Assembly (NCBI RefSeq): GCF_054482525.1
Contig: NZ_JBTHVG010000003.1
DNA: 64,000 nt
Strand: one strand, 5' to 3'
Source of the DNA: a plasmid
Positions 4,107 to 64,000 of the stretch are shown piece by piece. The position numbers were made by a program, and so were the translations under genes. The number at the start of each line of letters is the position of its first letter. Positions within the stretch are counted from its first letter, which is position 1. Below the pieces are notes generated by a model. The model saw only the letters and a list, made by a program, of their open reading frames with translations, was not told the DNA's origin and did no database searches.

Positions 4107-4895
4107 ATGAAAATGCTAAGTGGCATTAACATCCCTTTTTTCAAAAAATCTAAAAAGGATGAAAACGGTGATCTTGAACAGTCATACGTAAAGAAAGATG
4201 AAAGTGCTAAGGGACGTTTTTTGGACATTAAAAAACGATTTAGCCCACAAGCTGAAGCGTCAGGTGCTGGAATTACATACAGCGCCCTGATTAATCGTGA
4301 TACAAAACTTATCCGCATTAATACTGTTTCAATAGCCGTCATTGGGTTATTGGTTGCAAAGATTCTTTTTTTCACTGACCCAGTGACGATTGTTACCCCT
4401 CCAAACATGAATGAAGAGATCACGGTTGTTGGTAACAAAGCATCGGAATCTTATAAAACACAATGGGCTCTCTTTTTTAGTACCCTTTTAGGGAATATTA
4501 ATCCAACTAATATTTCCTTTGTGACGGCCTATGTCCTCGATGCCCTTTCACCTGAACTACAGGCTAAAACGAGTGAGTCTTTACAGGAGCAGATAAATAT
4601 CATGCAGGCTCGTGGTGTTGAGCAGACCTTTAAGCCTAATGATATTTACTTTGATCCAAAAAATGACATGGTCTATGTCTGGGGTACCAAAACGACTCGA
4701 CTTGTAAATGTTCCGGACAAAACTGAATCATCGAAATGGACTTATGAATGGGTTCTCGGGATGAAAAATGGTCGCCCAAGAATTGCATATGTAAATCAAT
4801 ATTCCGGAACACCGAATATTAAAAAAATTACGATAAACGGCAAAGAGCAACTGGCAACGCTGGATAATCCGCCACCGTCTACAGGTAACAAGTGA
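4107..4895 (+). CDS. traE: T4SS protein TraE-like (VirB5/TraE family), N-terminal membrane anchor
   Basis: 262 aa, one N-terminal transmembrane segment then a periplasmic domain. Position between traL and traK. GGAG ribosome-binding site upstream. Confidence 0.55.
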   Translation: MKMLSGINIPFFKKSKKDENGDLEQSYVKKDESAKGRFLDIKKRFSPQAEASGAGITYSALINRDTKLIRINTVSIAVIGLLVAKILFFTDPVTIVTPPNMNEEITVVGNKASESYKTQWALFFSTLLGNINPTNISFVTAYVLDALSPELQAKTSESLQEQINIMQARGVEQTFKPNDIYFDPKNDMVYVWGTKTTRLVNVPDKTESSKWTYEWVLGMKNGRPRIAYVNQYSGTPNIKKITINGKEQLATLDNPPPSTGNK

Positions 4896-39936: not shown

Positions 39937-40330
39937 TTCGATATGGGCATTTACTTATGCTTAAAGCTATAGTATAAAAACAATGAGCTTAAATATCAGC
40001 TCCCAAATTTGAGTAACTTTGCTTAAAGTTACTTTCGCGTTAAGCGTTGATTTAGCCGTGAAAAGCGGCCAGCTTAAACAAGCTGTAAGACACCACCGGC
40101 AAAATGTCACCTTTGTCGCTGGTGCACTTCCCATGCCTGAAAAAGGCAATCTGAATTTACCAAACCGTAACTAATTTAGCTCCTCCTGGAGCTATTTTTG
40201 TTGCGTACTTCTAATGCCAGATAGTATAAATCAGGCGGTTCATAGCTTACGGGAGATGAATGACAGGCTTTGCCTTCGTGTTGAAACAAAAAATTGTTTC
40301 TTCCTTCTTACTATATATAGGTGACCCCAA

Positions 40331-41644: not shown

Positions 41645-41690
41645 ACCCACCCTAAAGGGGAGAAATCCCTTCATGGGATTTCTCCTTTTG
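41645..41690. repeat. Conserved palindromic intergenic element (GGGAGAAATCCC / GGGATTTCTCC arms)
   Basis: cccaccctaaaggggagaaatcccttcatgggatttctccttttgg. Same arms as the element at 51784-51823. Confidence 0.6.
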
Positions 41691-44101: not shown

Positions 44102-44150
44102 AACCCTATCGGGAAATCTTTCCCGTTGGGGAGGGTTTCCCCTTTTTTTT
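44102..44150. repeat. Conserved palindromic intergenic element / putative terminator
   Basis: aaccctatcgggaaatctttcccgttggggagggtttcccctttttttt. Confidence 0.5.
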
Positions 44151-45288: not shown

Positions 45289-45306
45289 CTGTTTGCTTTA
45301 TTAAAA

Positions 45307-45350
45307 ACCCCAGATGGGTACTTCACCATCTGGGTGAGTACCCCTTTTTT
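45307..45350. repeat. Conserved palindromic intergenic element / putative terminator
   Basis: cccagatgggtacttcaccatctgggtgagtacccctttttt. Confidence 0.5.
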
Positions 45351-49052: not shown

Positions 49053-49287
49053 ATCTTATCAATATTATATTTTAAAATTGTATTGATAAGATAACCGCTT
49101 TCCTTCGTGATAATTACCTGCCTTTAAGGTCTTTTCACGGCTGAGATGCTTGCTCAGTTAAATAAATGTGCGGTACTACTGGCTATGGTCGGTTGTATGA
49201 CATGGTTATTCCATAAACTATTAAAACCCATAACGGGAGTATTACCGTTATGGTGATGCTCGTCGTTTTACATCGGAGAGCATTTTA

Positions 49288-50766: not shown

Positions 50767-50776
50767 TTAAATTATA

Positions 50777-50820
50777 CCCATGTGGGGATCACACCCCATA
50801 TGGGAGTGATCCCTTTTTTT
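50777..50820. repeat. Conserved palindromic intergenic element / putative terminator
   Basis: cccatgtggggatcacaccccatatgggagtgatcccttttttt. Confidence 0.6.
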
Positions 50821-51772: not shown

Positions 51773-51783
51773 TTAAAATTATT

Positions 51784-51823
51784 TTCTCCCATAGGGATTT
51801 CTCCCTATGGGAGAAATCCCTCT
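51784..51823. repeat. Conserved palindromic intergenic element (GGGATTTCTCCC / GGGAGAAATCCC arms)
   Basis: ttctcccatagggatttctccctatgggagaaatccctc. Perfect 12-bp arms with a 3-nt loop; same arms as the element at 41645-41690. Confidence 0.65.
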
Positions 51824-56959: not shown

Positions 56960-57406
56960 ATGCATAAAAAACTTTTTCTTCTCGAATGGAAACCCTGTCA
57001 GAGCCGCGTATGGGCCGGTTGGATGGCCCTGTGGTTGACTATCAGTTTTCTGATGTTATCTGCCTTGCTTATGACAGATCATCTCCTGAACAAAGTCATC
57101 CTGCCGCCAACATGGTTGTTGATCTGGTTTTCGCCAATGCTGGGGTTTTTGATAAAAGTTCGCGTCGTCGAAACTCAACATTTCCTGGAGCATGACCTCT
57201 GTGTTGCAGGTTTCTCTTTTTACCGCTGGAAGAGGTTAGTTTCTCCCGGGCTTTGGTCAGTTGACTGTATAAATGGTCGTTTTCGCCTCAATCGGATCAC
57301 CCAGGTGGGTAAGACTATCCACTATCCATGGCGTCTCCATTATCATCCTTTGTTCATGAGCCCTATCGAACATAAATCGCATGCTGTGAAAGCTGTTTCA
57401 AAATGA
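56960..57406 (+). CDS. Hypothetical membrane protein
   Basis: 148 aa with two hydrophobic segments. Confidence 0.3.
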   Translation: MHKKLFLLEWKPCQSRVWAGWMALWLTISFLMLSALLMTDHLLNKVILPPTWLLIWFSPMLGFLIKVRVVETQHFLEHDLCVAGFSFYRWKRLVSPGLWSVDCINGRFRLNRITQVGKTIHYPWRLHYHPLFMSPIEHKSHAVKAVSK

Positions 57407-57478
57407 CTTCTTTAGAGGTTTACATGACATTTATGTTCTGCAAGGTCAGCCAGGGCAGCAAAATTGATTTGAAATAAC

Positions 57479-58459
57479 ATGAGCCTGGAGAAACGTATGA
57501 GTTATGACGATTTGCCCTATTTTCGTGACCAGATTCTGGAACGTATCGACTCGCTTAAGTGTTTTCTTTCGAACACCCCCCCGCTGATGGCAAACCTGAT
57601 GACTGTCTCCACCGTATCTCGAACAGAAGAGCGACTGAAGCAGGTTAAACCCATCAGGGTTAGTGTTAAAGACGATGCTTCGGTTGAGGAAATTATTCAG
57701 GCACTTACTGACATCTGTGTGGATGACATAGAGTCATTAAGTCATGATTCCACCAAAGTGACCACTAAATACCCGGGTCTTATCATTGTCCCAGAAAGAG
57801 CAGATCTTCTCGAAAGCTTGATCACATCTATAAATGAAGCAAAAAATGATTTTGCTGCGGCAATGAGGCGTATCGATAATAAAAAGAATGTCCGTTTTGA
57901 TAAAGTGCACAAGAAGCTCCCGGGCCTTGTCGCTATGCACTCAACAAGAAATGTCCTTTTCATCAAGTCCCAGCTTAAAAAAGTTACTTTTTCATGGCGG
58001 CTAAACCGAAACCAGGAAGTTAAAACAGCAGAGCAACTTGTGAGTTTGTTGGAGCGCAGGAGAGCCTCAGAAGTAAAAAATGTAGCAACTACCAATTTGA
58101 ATGTCGTGTCTAATATCGATAAGGCTTTACACCGTCTTGAATTTCACCCACTGAAGCAGGGCGAATCTTATCGCCTTTGTCGAACTAACTCTTTCCCTGT
58201 TCCGATTGCTCACATTTTTGCATTTAGGCCTGAAGGCCAGGAACGAAACGGGAATAAATATGCTGAGACTGATTATTCAGTAGTAAAAGCATCCTTGCCC
58301 ATTTTCGCAGCAGGCAACATACCTCAATTAAAAACGCTCTCTGACTGGGCTCCTGAAAACAGCCAGGGCCCGTCCAACCAACGGAAGCTGAGCCTGAAAT
58401 ATACAGAACTCGTGCCGGGGGCTGAGCTGGGCATTTTCATTGTCAGCCCCGAAAATTAA
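57479..58459 (+). CDS. Tus-like protein (replication terminus site-binding protein homologue)
   Basis: 326 aa. By-eye alignment to E. coli Tus in its signature region (FDKVHKKLPGLVAMHSTRNV versus [20 protein letters not shown]; FSW versus FGW). Similar length to Tus (309 aa). Confidence 0.45.
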   Translation: MSLEKRMSYDDLPYFRDQILERIDSLKCFLSNTPPLMANLMTVSTVSRTEERLKQVKPIRVSVKDDASVEEIIQALTDICVDDIESLSHDSTKVTTKYPGLIIVPERADLLESLITSINEAKNDFAAAMRRIDNKKNVRFDKVHKKLPGLVAMHSTRNVLFIKSQLKKVTFSWRLNRNQEVKTAEQLVSLLERRRASEVKNVATTNLNVVSNIDKALHRLEFHPLKQGESYRLCRTNSFPVPIAHIFAFRPEGQERNGNKYAETDYSVVKASLPIFAAGNIPQLKTLSDWAPENSQGPSNQRKLSLKYTELVPGAELGIFIVSPEN

Positions 58460-58468
58460 GGAACAACA

Positions 58469-59374
58469 ATGCAATGGATTTCCACAGCCAGCCAGAAAAT
58501 CGATGAGCGTCTCTATCGTGTCTGCGTCTGGGTAAAAAAATATCACGCTGATGCGATTAACCGCGTTGTGCTTACCGTTGATCTAAGTAAAGCCCGACAT
58601 GACCCTGACGAGGACCAGGTAAGAGCAGAGCTGCTGTGCGGCCATTATTTTTTGCTTCGTAAGGAAAACGCTTCGAACTCTGCGCCTGACGATCAAAAGT
58701 TTGCTTTCCTGCCTGACGGGCGCAATCTGTGTTGGCAGACCGCAACCCCGGTGCTTCAGCATCTCCTGCTCAATAAAAACGTTCCTGAGTCGCTGAGGTT
58801 GCTTACGGACTACATACATATGCGTCTGGCCAGGCTGACAATGGTACCAATGTCCGGAACCATCATGAACGAGGCTCTGCTGGACAGCATCAGCTGGGTT
58901 AAGGTGGATTTGACCTACTTCTGGCAGTACGAACAGCTCAGCTCTCATCTGGGACCCATCCAGATAACCCACAAGGCACTAGTACGCTTCGGGCATCTGG
59001 CAAAGAATGATGAAAACTCCAGTGCCATAAGAATCCTGCGTCAGCGTCTGTCTTCAGAATTCTTACAAGAATTTCAGATGGCTGAGGATGAGCTAAAGCG
59101 CAAACAGTCGTTGATGGGCACCATGGACGTGAAAATGCTGTTTCATGCTCATTACCCCAGCCAGAAGATGCTGGTGGCTCGATATAAAAATGGTTGGGTA
59201 ATGGTGGATTGTTTTCTGTTTCATCATACCAAACCTAAGAAAAAAGCAAAAAACAAAACTACTGTGGCTAAGCCTCAACTTAAAGAGACTAAAAGAGAAG
59301 GGAGTGAAAATGGAACTGGGCATTATGGTGTGCATCGTGTTGTTACTCTCCGTGGCGGCGGCGTGGATCAGTAA
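58469..59374 (+). CDS. Hypothetical protein
   Basis: 301-aa ORF with a lysine-rich C-terminal tail. Confidence 0.35.
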   Translation: MQWISTASQKIDERLYRVCVWVKKYHADAINRVVLTVDLSKARHDPDEDQVRAELLCGHYFLLRKENASNSAPDDQKFAFLPDGRNLCWQTATPVLQHLLLNKNVPESLRLLTDYIHMRLARLTMVPMSGTIMNEALLDSISWVKVDLTYFWQYEQLSSHLGPIQITHKALVRFGHLAKNDENSSAIRILRQRLSSEFLQEFQMAEDELKRKQSLMGTMDVKMLFHAHYPSQKMLVARYKNGWVMVDCFLFHHTKPKKKAKNKTTVAKPQLKETKREGSENGTGHYGVHRVVTLRGGGVDQ

Positions 59375-59654
59375 TAAGACAGTTGATTTGCTCGAAAGAT
59401 TCTATTTCAAGCGTCCGCTGAGCATGGAGTACGCGGCATGGCTACGTGTAATGTGTGCAGGCTTGTTATTGGTTTTTATTCAGGTTGCTCCACAATTTAC
59501 ACTTCTGTATACCCTTAAACTTGTCACGCTTATTAATCTTGGAATCCAGACAATGAAATTAAATGGCGTGTACAAATATAAAAGAACGGGAATTTTGCCT
59601 CCGGGAGGGGCACTCTCTAATCTCACCAGACTTAACCCGTTCAAGAAAAAATAA
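59310..59654 (+). CDS. Hypothetical small membrane protein
   Basis: About 114 aa from the ATG at 59310 (GGGAG ribosome-binding site); two hydrophobic segments; overlaps the end of the previous ORF. Confidence 0.3.
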   Translation: MELGIMVCIVLLLSVAAAWISNKTVDLLERFYFKRPLSMEYAAWLRVMCAGLLLVFIQVAPQFTLLYTLKLVTLINLGIQTMKLNGVYKYKRTGILPPGGALSNLTRLNPFKKK

Positions 59655-59675
59655 AGTTATGCGCCCGTGAGGGCG

Positions 59676-60860
59676 CTATTCATCAAAGGCATTTCGCATA
59701 AGCTTGATCATTGCTTTTTTACCAGCTTCAATATTACGAATGTAGCGCATAACCATTTCTTCATTCGACCAGTTCCCCATTTCCATAATCTGTGGTAGCG
59801 AGTAACCTTCAATATTTAGCTGTATCGCTCCGCCTACACGAACGCTGTGCCCTGTCCAGTAACGAGTTTTAGTCTCATTTGGATAAAGCTCATTCCACAT
59901 CTCTTTAAATGCTCGTAAAAGGGAATTTTTGCTGAGCATACCGGCATCGTCCACAGTGTCTTCTTCATCTTCATCGTTCAGAAGACTTTGCTTAGCACGA
60001 TAGGGTAGGTTATGCCTTTTAAGAAGTTCAGATAGCTCATTCCCCTTACTCCGAAGCTTCCAGCCGGGTGGCATATAGCCTGTATCATGGAAATTTACGG
60101 CCTGGAAAAGGAATTCATCCGGATGACTGTGCTGATCCATTTTCACGAGGTTCATCAATCTCAAGAGGCAGTTAGTTAACTGACGTGTCAGCCGGTAGGT
60201 AAGAAGTGTACTAATGTTCGTTTTTGTACGGTATACCGTCAGGTTAAATTCACCGGTCATACTATCCAGAGACAGATCTTTCAGACGTATACGTCGAATT
60301 TCGGATGAACGGAGCAGTGTTTCAAAGCCTGTCCAGATCAGGCACAGGTCACGAAGTTTACGAACTGAGTTTGTAGTACTGCGTAACTTTATCAGAGCCT
60401 TGAGATCGCCAATAAGAAAGGGAGTTGCCTGTTTAGTCGTCTTTCGCTTCCGGGCTTCCGATTGTTTTAAGGCTTCCAGCATGTACCATGCTTCAGACGT
60501 AATAATCCCGGGCAGGTTAAGCCCTTTTTTATGGATACTATTTAAGGCCTGAAGACAGCTGTTTATGCTGCTTCGTGACAATTTGCCTTCAAGATGCCCC
60601 ATAAACGCAAGCAGAGCGTCCTCAGACACGGGGAGCGAACTTACTGGCCAGTCTGTATGCAACCGGGCATTCGCCAGATACCATTCGTTCCATACTCGTA
60701 GCCAGTGCAGATAGGTTTTAGCAGTGTTGTATCTCAGATGGGAAAAGTAACGGATCAAGCGTGAAAGCTGTTTATCATGGTTGCCGAACGTTTCCAGCTG
60801 CTGATGCAATTCGCTTTCCGAAAACTGTCTGATCACTGATTGATTCTTCATCCTGCTCAC
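59676..60860 (-). CDS. Tyrosine site-specific recombinase (phage-integrase / XerC-D-like family)
   Basis: 394 aa. C-terminal catalytic region with a conserved His-x-x-Arg (HSVRVGGA) and a terminal Tyr (MRYIRN). N-terminal SAM-like core-binding region. Confidence 0.75.
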   Translation of the reverse strand: MSRMKNQSVIRQFSESELHQQLETFGNHDKQLSRLIRYFSHLRYNTAKTYLHWLRVWNEWYLANARLHTDWPVSSLPVSEDALLAFMGHLEGKLSRSSINSCLQALNSIHKKGLNLPGIITSEAWYMLEALKQSEARKRKTTKQATPFLIGDLKALIKLRSTTNSVRKLRDLCLIWTGFETLLRSSEIRRIRLKDLSLDSMTGEFNLTVYRTKTNISTLLTYRLTRQLTNCLLRLMNLVKMDQHSHPDEFLFQAVNFHDTGYMPPGWKLRSKGNELSELLKRHNLPYRAKQSLLNDEDEEDTVDDAGMLSKNSLLRAFKEMWNELYPNETKTRYWTGHSVRVGGAIQLNIEGYSLPQIMEMGNWSNEEMVMRYIRNIEAGKKAMIKLMRNAFDE

Positions 60861-61021
60861 CGGGATACACTGGTTTTAATTACAGGTCATTTTAGCACTC
60901 ATGTACCTGGTTATGAACAGGGTGGAAACAACGAAAAAGGTTGTGAAATCGTTAGGCTTAAGTGAAAAATGATATTAAGATTATCCTTGGCCAGTTGAGG
61001 CCTGTCTAAAGAAGGTTGATT

Positions 61022-61234
61022 ATGTCTGACACAAAGCAGTCTTATTTAATGAAATTCCGTAAGTGTAGTTCGTTCGAAACGCTCGAAAAAGTATTTGAAA
61101 GGTTATGTGAAAAAAACTCGGGTGTCGCCTCTCTTGAAATTTCTGGTGCTTATGATCATCGTAAAGCCGAACTGACAATGAAAAAGTTATATGACAAAGT
61201 TCCTGCGAGTGTGTGGACCTTTGTTCGCGAGTAA
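61022..61234 (+). CDS. hha: Hha/YmoA-family nucleoid-associated modulator
   Basis: By-eye match to E. coli Hha ([22 protein letters not shown] versus [44 protein letters not shown] versus [21 protein letters not shown]). Confidence 0.8.
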   Translation: [70 protein letters not shown]

Positions 61235-61594
61235 TTATTAATATTGGCACAACAAAAAGACTGTGCCTAGATTTGAAAATAGTTTATGCCCCTTTCGGGG
61301 CTAAAGGCATTGTAATAGCCTGTCTTTTAAAGTTGTTTATTAAGTTCGGAGAAAAACTTTAATCATAAGCCAAGCCCACTGCTAAATACATCCGATATTC
61401 TCCTTCATTTTATTAGAAGTGATAAAAGTTACTTTACCTAAACTTCTCTCTCAATATTTGTAAGGCTCTCATTTGATTTTTGTCAAACATTAATCTGGAA
61501 GACGGAAAAATCATTTCTTTTAATACGTTTTACAGAAATCCTCCTCCGTTATTTCGGATATAGTTTGAATCATTATCAAAAACGGGGTGCAGCC

Positions 61595-62677
61595 ATGCGT
61601 AAGAGTTATACATTTGGTATTCCATTTGGACTCCAGCGAGAATCAGGACTCTTTTTAGATATTACAGAGGTCAGCCGGGGTATTGACTGTAACTGCATCT
61701 GCCCCGCTTGCAAAACTGATCTGTTAGCAAAGCAGGGGGAGGTCAAGCTTTGGCATTTCTCACACAGTACAGCTGTAGCCGGTGACTGTGATGGTCTGAT
61801 GGAAGCCATCCGGGGAAAGATTATTGAAGTCATCAACGAGCACCAGGTTCTTGGTTTCCCAAATCTTCTCGCTGGCGACGATGGTGGGCCGGTTTCACTG
61901 AATGAGGTTAGTGGAAGCGGCAGTATGTTCGGAGGCACAGCTGATCTGTTCGTAAAGGTTAATGATTTATGTGTGGCCGTCTTTCTGGACAGGGATCGCA
62001 GCATTTCAGAGAAGTTAACCTTTGACCATCTTCATCCTTCCGAAAGAGTTGCCGCATTGCGTATCGATCTTCCTGATATTGAATATGAAATCAGTCAGGT
62101 GCAGCTCGGGCGACGTAAAACAACATACAGTGAGTGCATTGAAAGCCTGATCATTGATGAGACCAGTTCCCGGGAATGGCTATATCATCCATTAATGCAT
62201 GAACTTGAATCTGAACCTCTTCAGGAGTATCGGGGACGGGAGCCTTCAGAGGAAGGGCCTCTTCTTCAGCGCCTTGCTGACTGTAAGATGAAATTGCCTG
62301 ATATCCTTCCGGGCAGTCATAACGCGCTAGTCAGGTTACAGCAGGATACGATTGTATGTCTGTGTCGGTTAACGGTTCGGGCTTATGACATCGCTCAGAC
62401 CGATGAATTTCCTTTGTTCCTTCGCTATTTCAGGTTGCACTGCCTGGAAAACAGCGAACATGTCAGTTACGAAAGACTGATCTGCTGGCAGGAAATGATT
62501 TCAAAAACCCAGGAAGGCCAGTCCTTGACACAAAACGAACTTGAATATCTTCATGAGATTGTCCGCATCGCCTTTTACAATCACCGGCTTAACAATGTCA
62601 GTATTTCAGATGTTAAAAACCATGACACTGGAAAGAAGAGCGGCAGGGTAGAGTCACAAAATTATTCACTTTTATAA
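61595..62677 (+). CDS. CoiA-like protein (competence protein CoiA family, putative nuclease)
   Basis: N-terminal CxxC...G...HFSH motif (CICPACKTDLLAKQGEVKLWHFSHS), characteristic of the CoiA family. About 360 aa from the ATG at 61595. Confidence 0.45.
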   Translation: MRKSYTFGIPFGLQRESGLFLDITEVSRGIDCNCICPACKTDLLAKQGEVKLWHFSHSTAVAGDCDGLMEAIRGKIIEVINEHQVLGFPNLLAGDDGGPVSLNEVSGSGSMFGGTADLFVKVNDLCVAVFLDRDRSISEKLTFDHLHPSERVAALRIDLPDIEYEISQVQLGRRKTTYSECIESLIIDETSSREWLYHPLMHELESEPLQEYRGREPSEEGPLLQRLADCKMKLPDILPGSHNALVRLQQDTIVCLCRLTVRAYDIAQTDEFPLFLRYFRLHCLENSEHVSYERLICWQEMISKTQEGQSLTQNELEYLHEIVRIAFYNHRLNNVSISDVKNHDTGKKSGRVESQNYSLL

Positions 62678-62843
62678 ATAACTTGGGCTTTGCGCATTAA
62701 ACCCTTGCCGCAGGCGGTGTACCGCATATCCGGCACAGACAGTCAGTTTTTTCTGGCAGCTTAAATTTGACACTGCTTAATATAGTGATTCATTAAACAG
62801 GTTCAGTATGCTGCCAGAACGTTTTAGTCGTAATGGGCGTCCG

Positions 62844-64000
62844 TTAGTTTTCAACTAACTGAACGACGACCAGCCTGCCGCCTTCCTCCTTTGACAGAAC
62901 AAACTGAGCGTTATTCGTCAGTTCAATTTTTTCCCCAATGGCAATCTGTCGTTTATCCGGTAATGACATAAGCCCATTTATGCCTTCATTTACTAACCAC
63001 CACTGATCGTTATGGAAAACAAAATACCCAACTCGTTTCCTTTGTGCATCGGTTGTGCGCTCATTTGGCGCAATGAGGCGATTCACATGCCACGCATAGA
63101 TTGACTGCCCGCTCCACACCATCAACCGGTGGTCGTCAGGACGATAACTGCCTTCCTTTCGGGATGAATATAAATTTAGAACCGGTAATTTACCCTTGTA
63201 TGGCGTACCGCAGTAGGGACAAACCGGCTTTGTCTTACCTGAGAAAACGTACCATTTCTGTTCACACGCCTTGTTCTGGCAGGGCTGTATCAGATCGACT
63301 GTTTTAACCAGGGCACTTTCCCACTCATCGGCGGTCGGGCGTTTATTGGCATCGTGTAAGCCATCAATAAAGGCGCGTTCAAACAAAGGCGTCAAATAAG
63401 GGCCCATGATGGTGTAAGGAATTTTCTCCGGGTCAGCCCAGGGCAGTGAAAAGGAGGATAGCTGACTGACTTTGACTGCATTGCTTTTGTCTGTCGGATG
63501 TTCAATGAAGAGTGCCTTCTCACCCATAGATAAGGTCTCATCACGTACTTCATCCGACATGTCATGTATTTTTCCGCCACGTAGCGGATGACGGAAGAAC
63601 AGATACATGTAGATAAGCACCGACAGCGCATGACGGTCAGTAGAAATGCTTGGCAATACGCGGTTCGGATCCTCTTTGGAAAGATGGCTGGTTTTCACCA
63701 CTTCCGGAGCGATAAAATCCGGGGTGCCCACGACGTCGGGAGGATACTTTCCAGGGACAACCAGGCCGTCTACGTCAATGATGCAGGCATGTCCCATTTC
63801 TGGATCGATAAGCACGTTTTTATAGCTTAGATCGCTGTGACAGAGACCTGCCGCATGCATCCTTCTGACGGCTCTTGTTAGCAGCAGACAGACCTTGAGA
63901 TAGGTAAGCGTATTGCCTCGTTCACGTAGGTCGAGAAATTTATTCTGGTTGCTGGCGCTGGCAAACCATTTGCCTTCCTTTTCACGGCCTTTTATGCCAA
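62844..64000 (-). CDS. Eukaryotic-like Ser/Thr protein kinase with C-terminal zinc-ribbon and FHA-like region; N-terminus lies beyond the window end
   Basis: Catalytic loop HSDLSYKNVL (HRDLKxxN-like), DVDG (DFG-like), FIAPEVV (APE). The reading frame stays open upstream of the first Met to position 64000. C-terminal CQNKAC...CPYCG zinc ribbon. Confidence 0.7.
   Translation of the reverse strand, partial: GIKGREKEGKWFASASNQNKFLDLRERGNTLTYLKVCLLLTRAVRRMHAAGLCHSDLSYKNVLIDPEMGHACIIDVDGLVVPGKYPPDVVGTPDFIAPEVVKTSHLSKEDPNRVLPSISTDRHALSVLIYMYLFFRHPLRGGKIHDMSDEVRDETLSMGEKALFIEHPTDKSNAVKVSQLSSFSLPWADPEKIPYTIMGPYLTPLFERAFIDGLHDANKRPTADEWESALVKTVDLIQPCQNKACEQKWYVFSGKTKPVCPYCGTPYKGKLPVLNLYSSRKEGSYRPDDHRLMVWSGQSIYAWHVNRLIAPNERTTDAQRKRVGYFVFHNDQWWLVNEGINGLMSLPDKRQIAIGEKIELTNNAQFVLSKEEGGRLVVVQLVEN

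Follow-up and report, generated by a model that had tools for sequence, protein, structure and literature searches.

The 64,000-nucleotide stretch analysed here (the window; contig NZ_JBTHVG010000003.1 of assembly GCF_054482525.1) is IncHI2 plasmid backbone, and carries a tyrosine recombinase gene (59676-60851, minus strand) adjacent to a divergently transcribed Hha/YmoA-family gene (61022-61234, plus strand). The two genes, including their surroundings, are best explained as a conserved maintenance and regulation module of IncHI-type megaplasmids, a view that we hold to be probably correct, and both are orthologues of genes in the IncHI1 plasmid R27, R0183 for the recombinase and R0182 for hha. 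This is a known kind of system, a close orthologue of studied R27 genes, and current understanding of it is not overturned. Two features go beyond the current annotation, namely a clear assignment of the recombinase to the Cre family, based on sequence and modelled fold, and a deeply conserved LexA-type operator in its promoter, a modest regulatory twist that is apparently unreported. Many IncHI2A/MOBH conjugative plasmids, pNB4833-1 among them, match 57400-63900 at 100% identity, and at least 80% of this region is covered by 1083 plasmid records.

The recombinase open reading frame (ORF) extends from 59676 to 60860 on the minus strand. However, the ATG at 60851 is likely to be the true start rather than the GTG at 60860, as it is the RefSeq start of WP_000795947.1 and agrees with the starts of homologues, and the gene would then encode 391 amino acids (aa; coordinates include the stop codon). 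The product belongs to Pfam Phage_integrase (PF00589), with 51 bits against a cut-off of 27.1 bits (E 1.8e-13). Both ORFs were found at the coordinates given in an earlier reading of this DNA made without database searches (the sequence-only reading), and Pfam matches above the cut-offs bear out its identification of a stand-alone tyrosine recombinase beside an Hha/YmoA-family gene. Its further description of the recombinase as XerC/D-like was not upheld. The NCBIfam XerC equivalog TIGR02224 scores only 17.1 bits against a 335-bit cut-off, the NCBIfam profile search reported no XerD model at E values up to 0.1, and Cre is the best match by sequence and by fold. P1 Cre and engineered variants of it are the only sequence matches among solved structures (phmmer, E 2e-23), and the match falls in two stretches, residues 40-256 and 332-390, that span the N-terminal and catalytic domains. 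The fold was also modelled with AlphaFold from 11 family members (mean predicted local distance difference test score 76), and in a Foldseek search with this model the top 33 matches were all Cre (E 8e-18 to 6e-11), with template modelling scores of approximately 0.75-0.76 when normalised to Cre. The next matches were an integron integrase (E 1e-7) and XerH (E 2e-7).

Alignment of ten family members with one P1-type Cre revealed that R181, K210, H335, R338, W361 and Y370, which pair with Cre R173, K201, H289, R292, W315 and Y324, are invariant in all 11 sequences. Judged by this alignment the active site is intact, and the catalytic tetrad on which the sequence-only reading had let its identification depend is thus present as part of a complete R-K-H-R-W-Y set that is common to the IncHI family and P1 Cre. 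The fifth catalytic position, W361, is occupied by Trp in all of the aligned sequences. Trp at this position is the Cre-type choice, and most other family members including Xer have His. The overall identity to Cre is only 26%, and the IncHI family differs from Cre in an N-terminal extension and in an insertion of approximately 55 residues (roughly 258-312, after Cre residue ∼246) that is absent from Cre. The insertion includes a conserved YMPxxWxxRSxG motif and an acidic stretch, and was modelled with low confidence. The role of P1 Cre is likewise to keep a low-copy plasmid monomeric (PMC2409434).

The recombinase and the Hha-family protein share 64% and 90% identity with R27 R0183 and R0182, respectively. 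In R27 [NC_002305] the hha gene (159190-159402) and the tyrosine recombinase gene (159617-160798) are also adjacent and divergent, and the neighbours (a tus homologue and a CoiA_N-like gene), the recombinase promoter and its LexA-type box are of the same kind as in IncHI2, the R27 copies being the ones studied experimentally. R0182 has been named hha (PMC4853401) and R0183 has been named as a potential Y-recombinase (PMC11724359). A deletion plasmid lacking R0183 was stable in wild-type E. coli and was readily lost only in hosts deficient in xerC, xerD or the FtsK ATPase, and the authors of that study interpreted this as redundancy between two dimer-resolution systems of R27, one being the self-encoded recombinase and the other an XerCD site, xrs, that depends on FtsK (PMC11724359). 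The xrs sites of R27 and of the IncHI2 plasmid R478 both recombine in an XerCD/FtsK-dependent manner, and the study, published in 2025, named no site for the R0183 recombinase (PMC11724359). In R27, xrs is located 24 kb from the recombinase gene.

By orthology to R0183, the IncHI2 recombinase would be expected to resolve plasmid dimers. It would act at a plasmid site, turning dimers back into monomers, and would serve as a self-encoded back-up to the host XerCD/FtsK system acting at the plasmid xrs. Multimer resolution, one of two roles offered in the sequence-only reading, fits the R0183 deletion genetics (PMC11724359). XerC and XerD are also tyrosine recombinases that resolve replicon dimers, and are used by IncHI plasmids at xrs, but they are a host-encoded pair rather than a single plasmid protein, and the fold of the IncHI2 recombinase is 10 orders of magnitude closer to Cre. 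IncHI2 plasmids play a major part in the carriage of resistance genes such as mcr-1, and their persistence rests on their stability. The Cre-like identity of the self-encoded resolvase indicates which type of site, and which assay, to look for.

Only 60861-60940 of the interval 60861-61020 between the two genes aligns between IncHI2 and IncHI1. This segment contains the recombinase promoter and is the only non-coding block near the gene for which the two groups align. The predicted sigma-70 promoter (60889-60917, minus strand) has a -35 element TTCATA, a 17-nt spacer and an extended -10 element TGcTAAAAT, and was called in a promoter scan with 9 of 12 matches and the TG present. A LexA-type SOS box, ACCTGTAATTAAAACCAGTG (60868-60887, minus strand), follows the -10 hexamer at a distance of 1 nt and stops 17 nt short of the ATG. 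It fits the LexA consensus CTG-N10-CAG and is AT-rich at its centre. The sequence-only reading had suggested a search of 60861-61020 for a res or dif-like site, and this interval instead holds the promoter and the LexA-type box.

The arrangement was compared in 12 lineages, which form approximately 8 groups with flanks that no longer align. In all 12, the -10 hexamer is followed within 0-3 nt by a CTG-N10-CAG box, and 7-27 nt separate the end of the box from the start codon. In 10 of the 12 it outscores every other 20-mer of its own locus (5-13 kb each), a count that includes locus L014 after correction of an over-long annotated start, and the boxes of several lineages score 17-21, equal to genuine SOS boxes. 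With the box as the anchor of the alignment, CAG was invariant, as were the C and T of CTG, and the whole CTG was present in 11 of 12. The extended -10 element (TGnTAnnAT, conserved in 11 of 12 lineages) was nearly invariant, and almost nothing else was conserved. The box of Photorhabdus has CTA instead of CTG.

From this conservation we infer that the recombinase promoter is LexA-repressed and SOS-inducible. Whether the Cre-family recombinase of approximately 3,800 plasmid records is under direct LexA control is a tentative matter, and we would rate it at slightly less than an even chance. Transcription would start from the extended -10 sigma-70 promoter with the LexA operator covering the start site, and expression of the recombinase would be low in undamaged cells and would rise upon activation of RecA. 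Such activation would coincide with recombinational repair, when dimers form, and would also accompany the arrival of the plasmid, in single-stranded form, in a new host. Control of this type makes biological sense: plasmid dimers arise through RecA-mediated recombination, the SOS response is chronically on in xer and ftsK mutants, and it is also triggered by plasmid DNA that enters a cell as a single strand. If the control is real, dimer resolution, or another rearrangement at the target site, would be switched on by DNA damage, SOS-inducing antibiotics and conjugative entry, and, provided that the conserved box is functional, quinolones and other SOS-inducing drugs would increase the expression of a plasmid recombinase. 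The enzyme and its site would in that case also form a new, naturally orthogonal Cre-type pair. To our knowledge, a link of this kind between stress and plasmid genome dynamics has been shown only for integron integrases and a few mobile-element functions. No report of a LexA box on an IncHI recombinase was found in the searchable literature, though it may be mentioned elsewhere.

The nearest precedent for LexA control of the recombinase is that of the integron integrases, where a LexA box overlaps the intI promoter, recombination is SOS-inducible and binding of LexA has been demonstrated (PMC3108266). Both are tyrosine recombinase genes on mobile DNA with a promoter overlapped by a conserved LexA box, the role of LexA in IncHI2 being the predicted one. 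However, IntI belongs to another subfamily (fold match at E 1e-7 versus 8e-18 for Cre) and the reaction that it catalyses is cassette capture.

Several observations count against a LexA-controlled dimer resolvase. The experimental data on dimer resolution come from the R27 orthologue and not from the IncHI2 protein, and no 13-8-13 palindrome with 2 or fewer mismatches was found within 2.5 kb of the recombinase gene. The LexA weight matrix was made from an informal set of approximately 20 E. coli SOS boxes, and the window box scores 15.1-15.5 where the training sites score 13-25. A score of 15.1 is barely above the best scores of shuffled windows (mean 13.3, standard deviation 2.2) and is weak when taken alone, so the case for LexA rests on conservation. 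A second promoter-like site (60980-61008, minus strand) was detected upstream of the box in the promoter scan. In R27 arrays, R0183 gave a sizeable signal without DNA damage, and hha and R0183 were both ∼2.4-fold higher at 37°C than at 25°C (PMC7366339); given the signal in undamaged cells, any LexA repression would have to be incomplete or bypassed.

The box at 60868-60887 is the second-best match to the weight matrix in the window. The best LexA-type 20-mer, CGCTGTATGTAATTCCAGCA (4265-4284, score 18), is probably a chance match since it is located inside a transfer-region ORF (4107-4895).

Cre-type enzymes normally act at a 13-8-13 palindrome located no more than 1 kb from their gene (PMC10250229). 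Scans for lox-like sites were conducted with 13-bp arms and 6-10 bp spacers, with relaxed scans accepting at least 9 of 13 matched positions, and with a Cre-type half-site signature (T at position 7 and K-A-K-A next to the spacer). No resolution site was found near the gene, within the gene or among the conserved dyads of the 50 kb shared with R27. In P1, loxP is located ∼420 bp upstream of cre, whereas there is no lox-like 13-8-13 sequence within 1 kb of the IncHI2 gene. The best nearby candidate, 61240-61273, has 3 mismatches, is of a kind that occurs at chance frequency (25 such sites per 64 kb), is not conserved and lacks the half-site signature. A palindrome at 58836-58868 is conserved in four lineages but is coding (TMVPMSGTIM), and synonymous positions do not keep its symmetry. 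Synonymous positions in the recombinase gene and hha show no excess conservation that would indicate a hidden site within either. A perfect 13-8-13 palindrome at 51783-51816 was also rejected, as it is one of a set of intergenic hairpins and its R27 counterpart keeps the structure and not the sequence.

All dyads in the window were further compared with the syntenic 95 kb of R27, and this gave one striking element, an inverted repeat at 40091-40124 that is identical to R27 at 34 of 34 positions and fits 13-8-13 with 2 mismatches. It is unlikely to be a core site of fixed geometry, as the stem top and length differ in the Klebsiella lineage, and it has no tie to the recombinase gene, which is 20 kb away. 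A search for a dif-like site using the XerD arm TTATGTTAAAT gave one match with 2 mismatches in 64 kb where 5.2 are expected by chance, and the R27 xrs is absent from the window.

A hairpin is found at the position of the recombinase stop codon in each lineage. In the window it has the form GCGCCC-GTGA-GGGCGC (59662-59677), is GC-rich, shares bases with the stop codon and has a T-run after it on the minus strand. It is near-identical within the close IncHI group and unrelated in distant lineages, where several of the hairpins are GC-rich and some have a T-run after them. The Klebsiella hairpin formally fits 13-8-13 with 2 mismatches. As a hairpin is present in every lineage but its sequence is not kept, 59662-59677 was rejected as a recombination site and is probably a terminator between convergent genes. 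The interval 59655-59675, which the sequence-only reading had suggested searching for a res or dif-like site, holds this structure instead, which extends slightly beyond it.

Given that the scans revealed no target site, the main job of the recombinase could be something other than dimer resolution, such as a segment inversion or deletion switch or processing after conjugation, with the R27 stability phenotype as a side effect. This would also be consistent with the conserved ∼55-aa insertion, which Cre lacks and which was modelled with low confidence, and with the co-regulation of recombinase and hha by temperature in R27, and SOS control would equally suit a role on entry into a recipient. 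However, neither the 64-kb window nor the compared R27 regions yielded a matching pair of sites in inverted or direct orientation, and the only experimental phenotype is loss of stability in Xer/FtsK-deficient hosts. We therefore consider another main job unlikely, and dimer resolution remains the preferred role.

The CTG-N10-CAG element could alternatively be a site for the recombinase itself, either for autoregulation or as the crossover core, or for another plasmid regulator. When read as CTGT-N8-ACAG it leaves an 8-bp AT-rich centre resembling a lox spacer, resolution sites in other systems often overlap recombinase promoters, and P1-type elements have a strong LexA box only 28 bp from loxP (46-65 in P1 [NC_005856], locus L018; 1922-1941 in locus L015). 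Across the 12 lineages, however, dyad symmetry drops to the random level (23%) beyond the 20-bp box, so 13-bp arms are absent and the element is no lox-like site of 34 bp. Conservation coincides exactly with the positions of the LexA consensus, the scores of 17-21 in several lineages match those of genuine SOS boxes, and a site co-evolving with a recombinase that has diverged to 36% identity would not be expected to keep the consensus of a host LexA. A site for the recombinase or for a different regulator is thus improbable, and a LexA operator is the preferred interpretation of the box.

The LexA site of P1 is assigned in the P1 record to promoter P2coi, from which transcription proceeds across lox in the direction away from cre, unlike the IncHI2 box, which is on the recombinase's own promoter. 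SOS control as an ancestral trait of the Cre family was dropped for this reason, as the P1 site belongs to the opposite-strand P2coi.

Relatives of the recombinase were detected by tblastn in 3781 plasmid records, which include mcr-1 IncHI2 plasmids, IncHI1 typhoid plasmids and large Klebsiella MOBH plasmids. The order of genes in the block is conserved, with a Tus homologue followed by two or three small ORFs, the recombinase gene, the divergent hha and usually an ORF with a CoiA_N domain. In the window, the Tus (replication terminus-binding) homologue is at 57479-58459 (plus strand; Pfam Ter, E 4.6e-19) and the CoiA_N ORF at 61565-62677 (plus strand; Pfam CoiA_N, E 6.3e-08). The same order was found in IncHI1 plasmids, a Pantoea IncHI1B plasmid, Photorhabdus, Rahnella, a Klebsiella MOBH plasmid and several metagenomic contigs, and persists down to 36% identity of the recombinase. 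The CoiA_N ORF adjoins hha in loci L007, L008, L012 and L014 and in IncHI1/R27. On the evidence of this gene order, the recombinase/hha block is conserved plasmid backbone and not the edge of an acquired module, the second role offered in the sequence-only reading. The deep linkage of the recombinase gene and hha is backbone synteny and should not be read as pointing to a joint mechanism.

The alternative of an integrase or excisionase-type enzyme, sitting at the border of an acquired module or moving a segment or the whole plasmid into and out of another replicon, would account for the clustering of insertions near the locus in R27, Photorhabdus, Rahnella and IncHI2 relatives, but is very unlikely, as the genes on both flanks are conserved backbone in every lineage, neither flanking direct repeats nor att-like sites were found at the locus, a tRNA-type target is absent from it, the insertions are different elements at different points, and the R27 genetics point to dimer resolution.

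The insertions themselves are the result of ordinary transposition of different elements at different points. In R27, IS1-RepFIA-IS1 is found between hha and the CoiA_N-like gene, and is absent in IncHI2. A Tn3-family element adjoins hha in Photorhabdus, and in Rahnella the recombinase gene and hha are separated by an insertion. In mcr-1 IncHI2 plasmids such as pLD91-1-MCR1, ISApl1-mcr-1-pap2 is located ∼300 bp past the recombinase stop codon, at the 3′-end of a 301-aa ORF (58469-59374; insertion point in window coordinates ∼59340-59375; locus L016, 1945-5650). Other IncHI2 relatives have ISVsa5, IS66 or IS21 insertions somewhere within 57400-63900.

The AT-rich, non-conserved spacer beyond hha (61235-61564) is a slot for replication genes in other lineages. 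The Rep genes near hha include those of IS1-RepFIA-IS1 in R27 (locus L002, 1167-4276) and a Rep3 gene in locus L008 (3803-4885), and a RepB gene is close by hha in a Klebsiella plasmid (locus L004, 2117-3016). The slot adjoining hha thus repeatedly hosts replicons.

The hha ORF starts at the ATG at 61022, and the TTG at 61016 returned by the ORF finder is probably unused. The gene (61022-61234, stop codon included) predicts a 70-aa protein that belongs to Pfam HHA (68 bits against a 25-bit cut-off, E 8.6e-19, profile positions 1-56 of 57), and solved structures of Hha and YmoA match it at E 4e-16 and 5e-15. It shares 51% identity with E. coli Hha. The NCBIfam Hha subfamily scores 75.6 bits, which is below the cut-off of 90, and the protein is for this reason described as an Hha-family member rather than Hha proper. 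E. coli Hha, Yersinia YmoA and YdgT (Cnu) are of the same Pfam family and length and share the D48-equivalent residue, whereas the IncHI2 protein is a plasmid-encoded paralogue that falls below the NCBIfam Hha cut-off. Residues D45-H46-R47, nearly invariant in 12 sequences, align with D48-H49-R50 of Hha, where the acidic D48 is the residue that we take to contact H-NS in the 4ICG complex.

Conservation of the Hha ORF, on which the sequence-only reading had also relied, was confirmed, hha being kept beside the recombinase gene in 10 of the 11 lineages for which that flank is available. Photorhabdus is the only lineage seen with a degenerate hha, which in the contig of Photorhabdus tasmaniensis (locus L006, 5561-5755) is N-terminally truncated and frameshifted after ∼38 residues, beside a Tn3-family transposon. 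IncHI2, IncHI1, Pantoea and Photorhabdus all have an AATCTTA/TAAGATT motif ∼40 nt ahead of the hha start, and the hexamer TAAGAT (60976-60981, plus strand) is a low-confidence candidate for the hha -10 element; the promoter scan made no call at this position.

Repression of conjugation at 37°C by H-NS and Hha has been described for R27 (Forns 2005, cited in PMC7366339). By orthology, the IncHI2 Hha-family protein may be expected to have a silencing role. It would bind H-NS, either the host copy or a plasmid homologue, and help to silence AT-rich plasmid genes, which would include, as in R27, the transfer genes at 37°C. An H-NS homologue that shares 81% identity with that of R27 is present on IncHI2-size plasmids, and the whole window is AT-rich (35-49% GC), making silencing by H-NS/Hha plausible for the plasmid at large. 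The remark on Hha/H-NS silencing in the sequence-only reading agrees with this plasmid homologue and with the published R27 work, but the AT-rich accessory genes that it placed upstream are not accessory, as the genes of 35-38% GC are backbone common to R27.

The Tus homologue is located 1.2 kb past the 3′-end of the recombinase gene and is on the same side in 9 lineages. Cumulative GC skew climbs across the window and reaches a plateau at ∼56-63 kb, where gene orientation also switches. No E. coli-type Ter sites above the number expected by chance were found in the window. For R27, a replication-terminus neighbourhood has been described for the corresponding region (PMC11724359). The plateau and the Tus homologue would fit such a neighbourhood in IncHI2 and suggest it weakly. 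Beyond the CoiA_N ORF is a kinase gene (62844-63860; an InaA-family kinase in the pNB4833-1 annotation), with which the PP2C, TerY and VWA cluster begins; this cluster in turn leads on to the tellurite-resistance region.

Among the non-coding DNA of the window, conservation is highest in a block of ∼390 bp downstream of trhI (39940-40330), which is 86% identical to R27, compared with 73% for the shared backbone, contains multiple hairpins and includes the inverted repeat at 40091-40124. A promoter-like sequence in this block, TTCTAATGCCAGATAGTATAAAT, is still recognisable in the Klebsiella lineage, and a search of Rfam returned no match for the block. The block may function as a structured RNA, as a single-strand DNA element or as the regulatory region of the downstream AAA-ATPase/DUF3150/VWA/toprim operon. 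Stem-loops are also found between same-strand genes at 41655-41689, 44102-44142, 45305-45345, 49224-49257, 50774-50815 and 51783-51823, and several of them differ from their R27 counterparts by 1-3 mismatches. The last contains two overlapping perfect hairpins with 13-bp stems, and its arm GGGAGAAATCCC occurs again at 41658. These stem-loops may be terminators, attenuators or RNA-processing signals.

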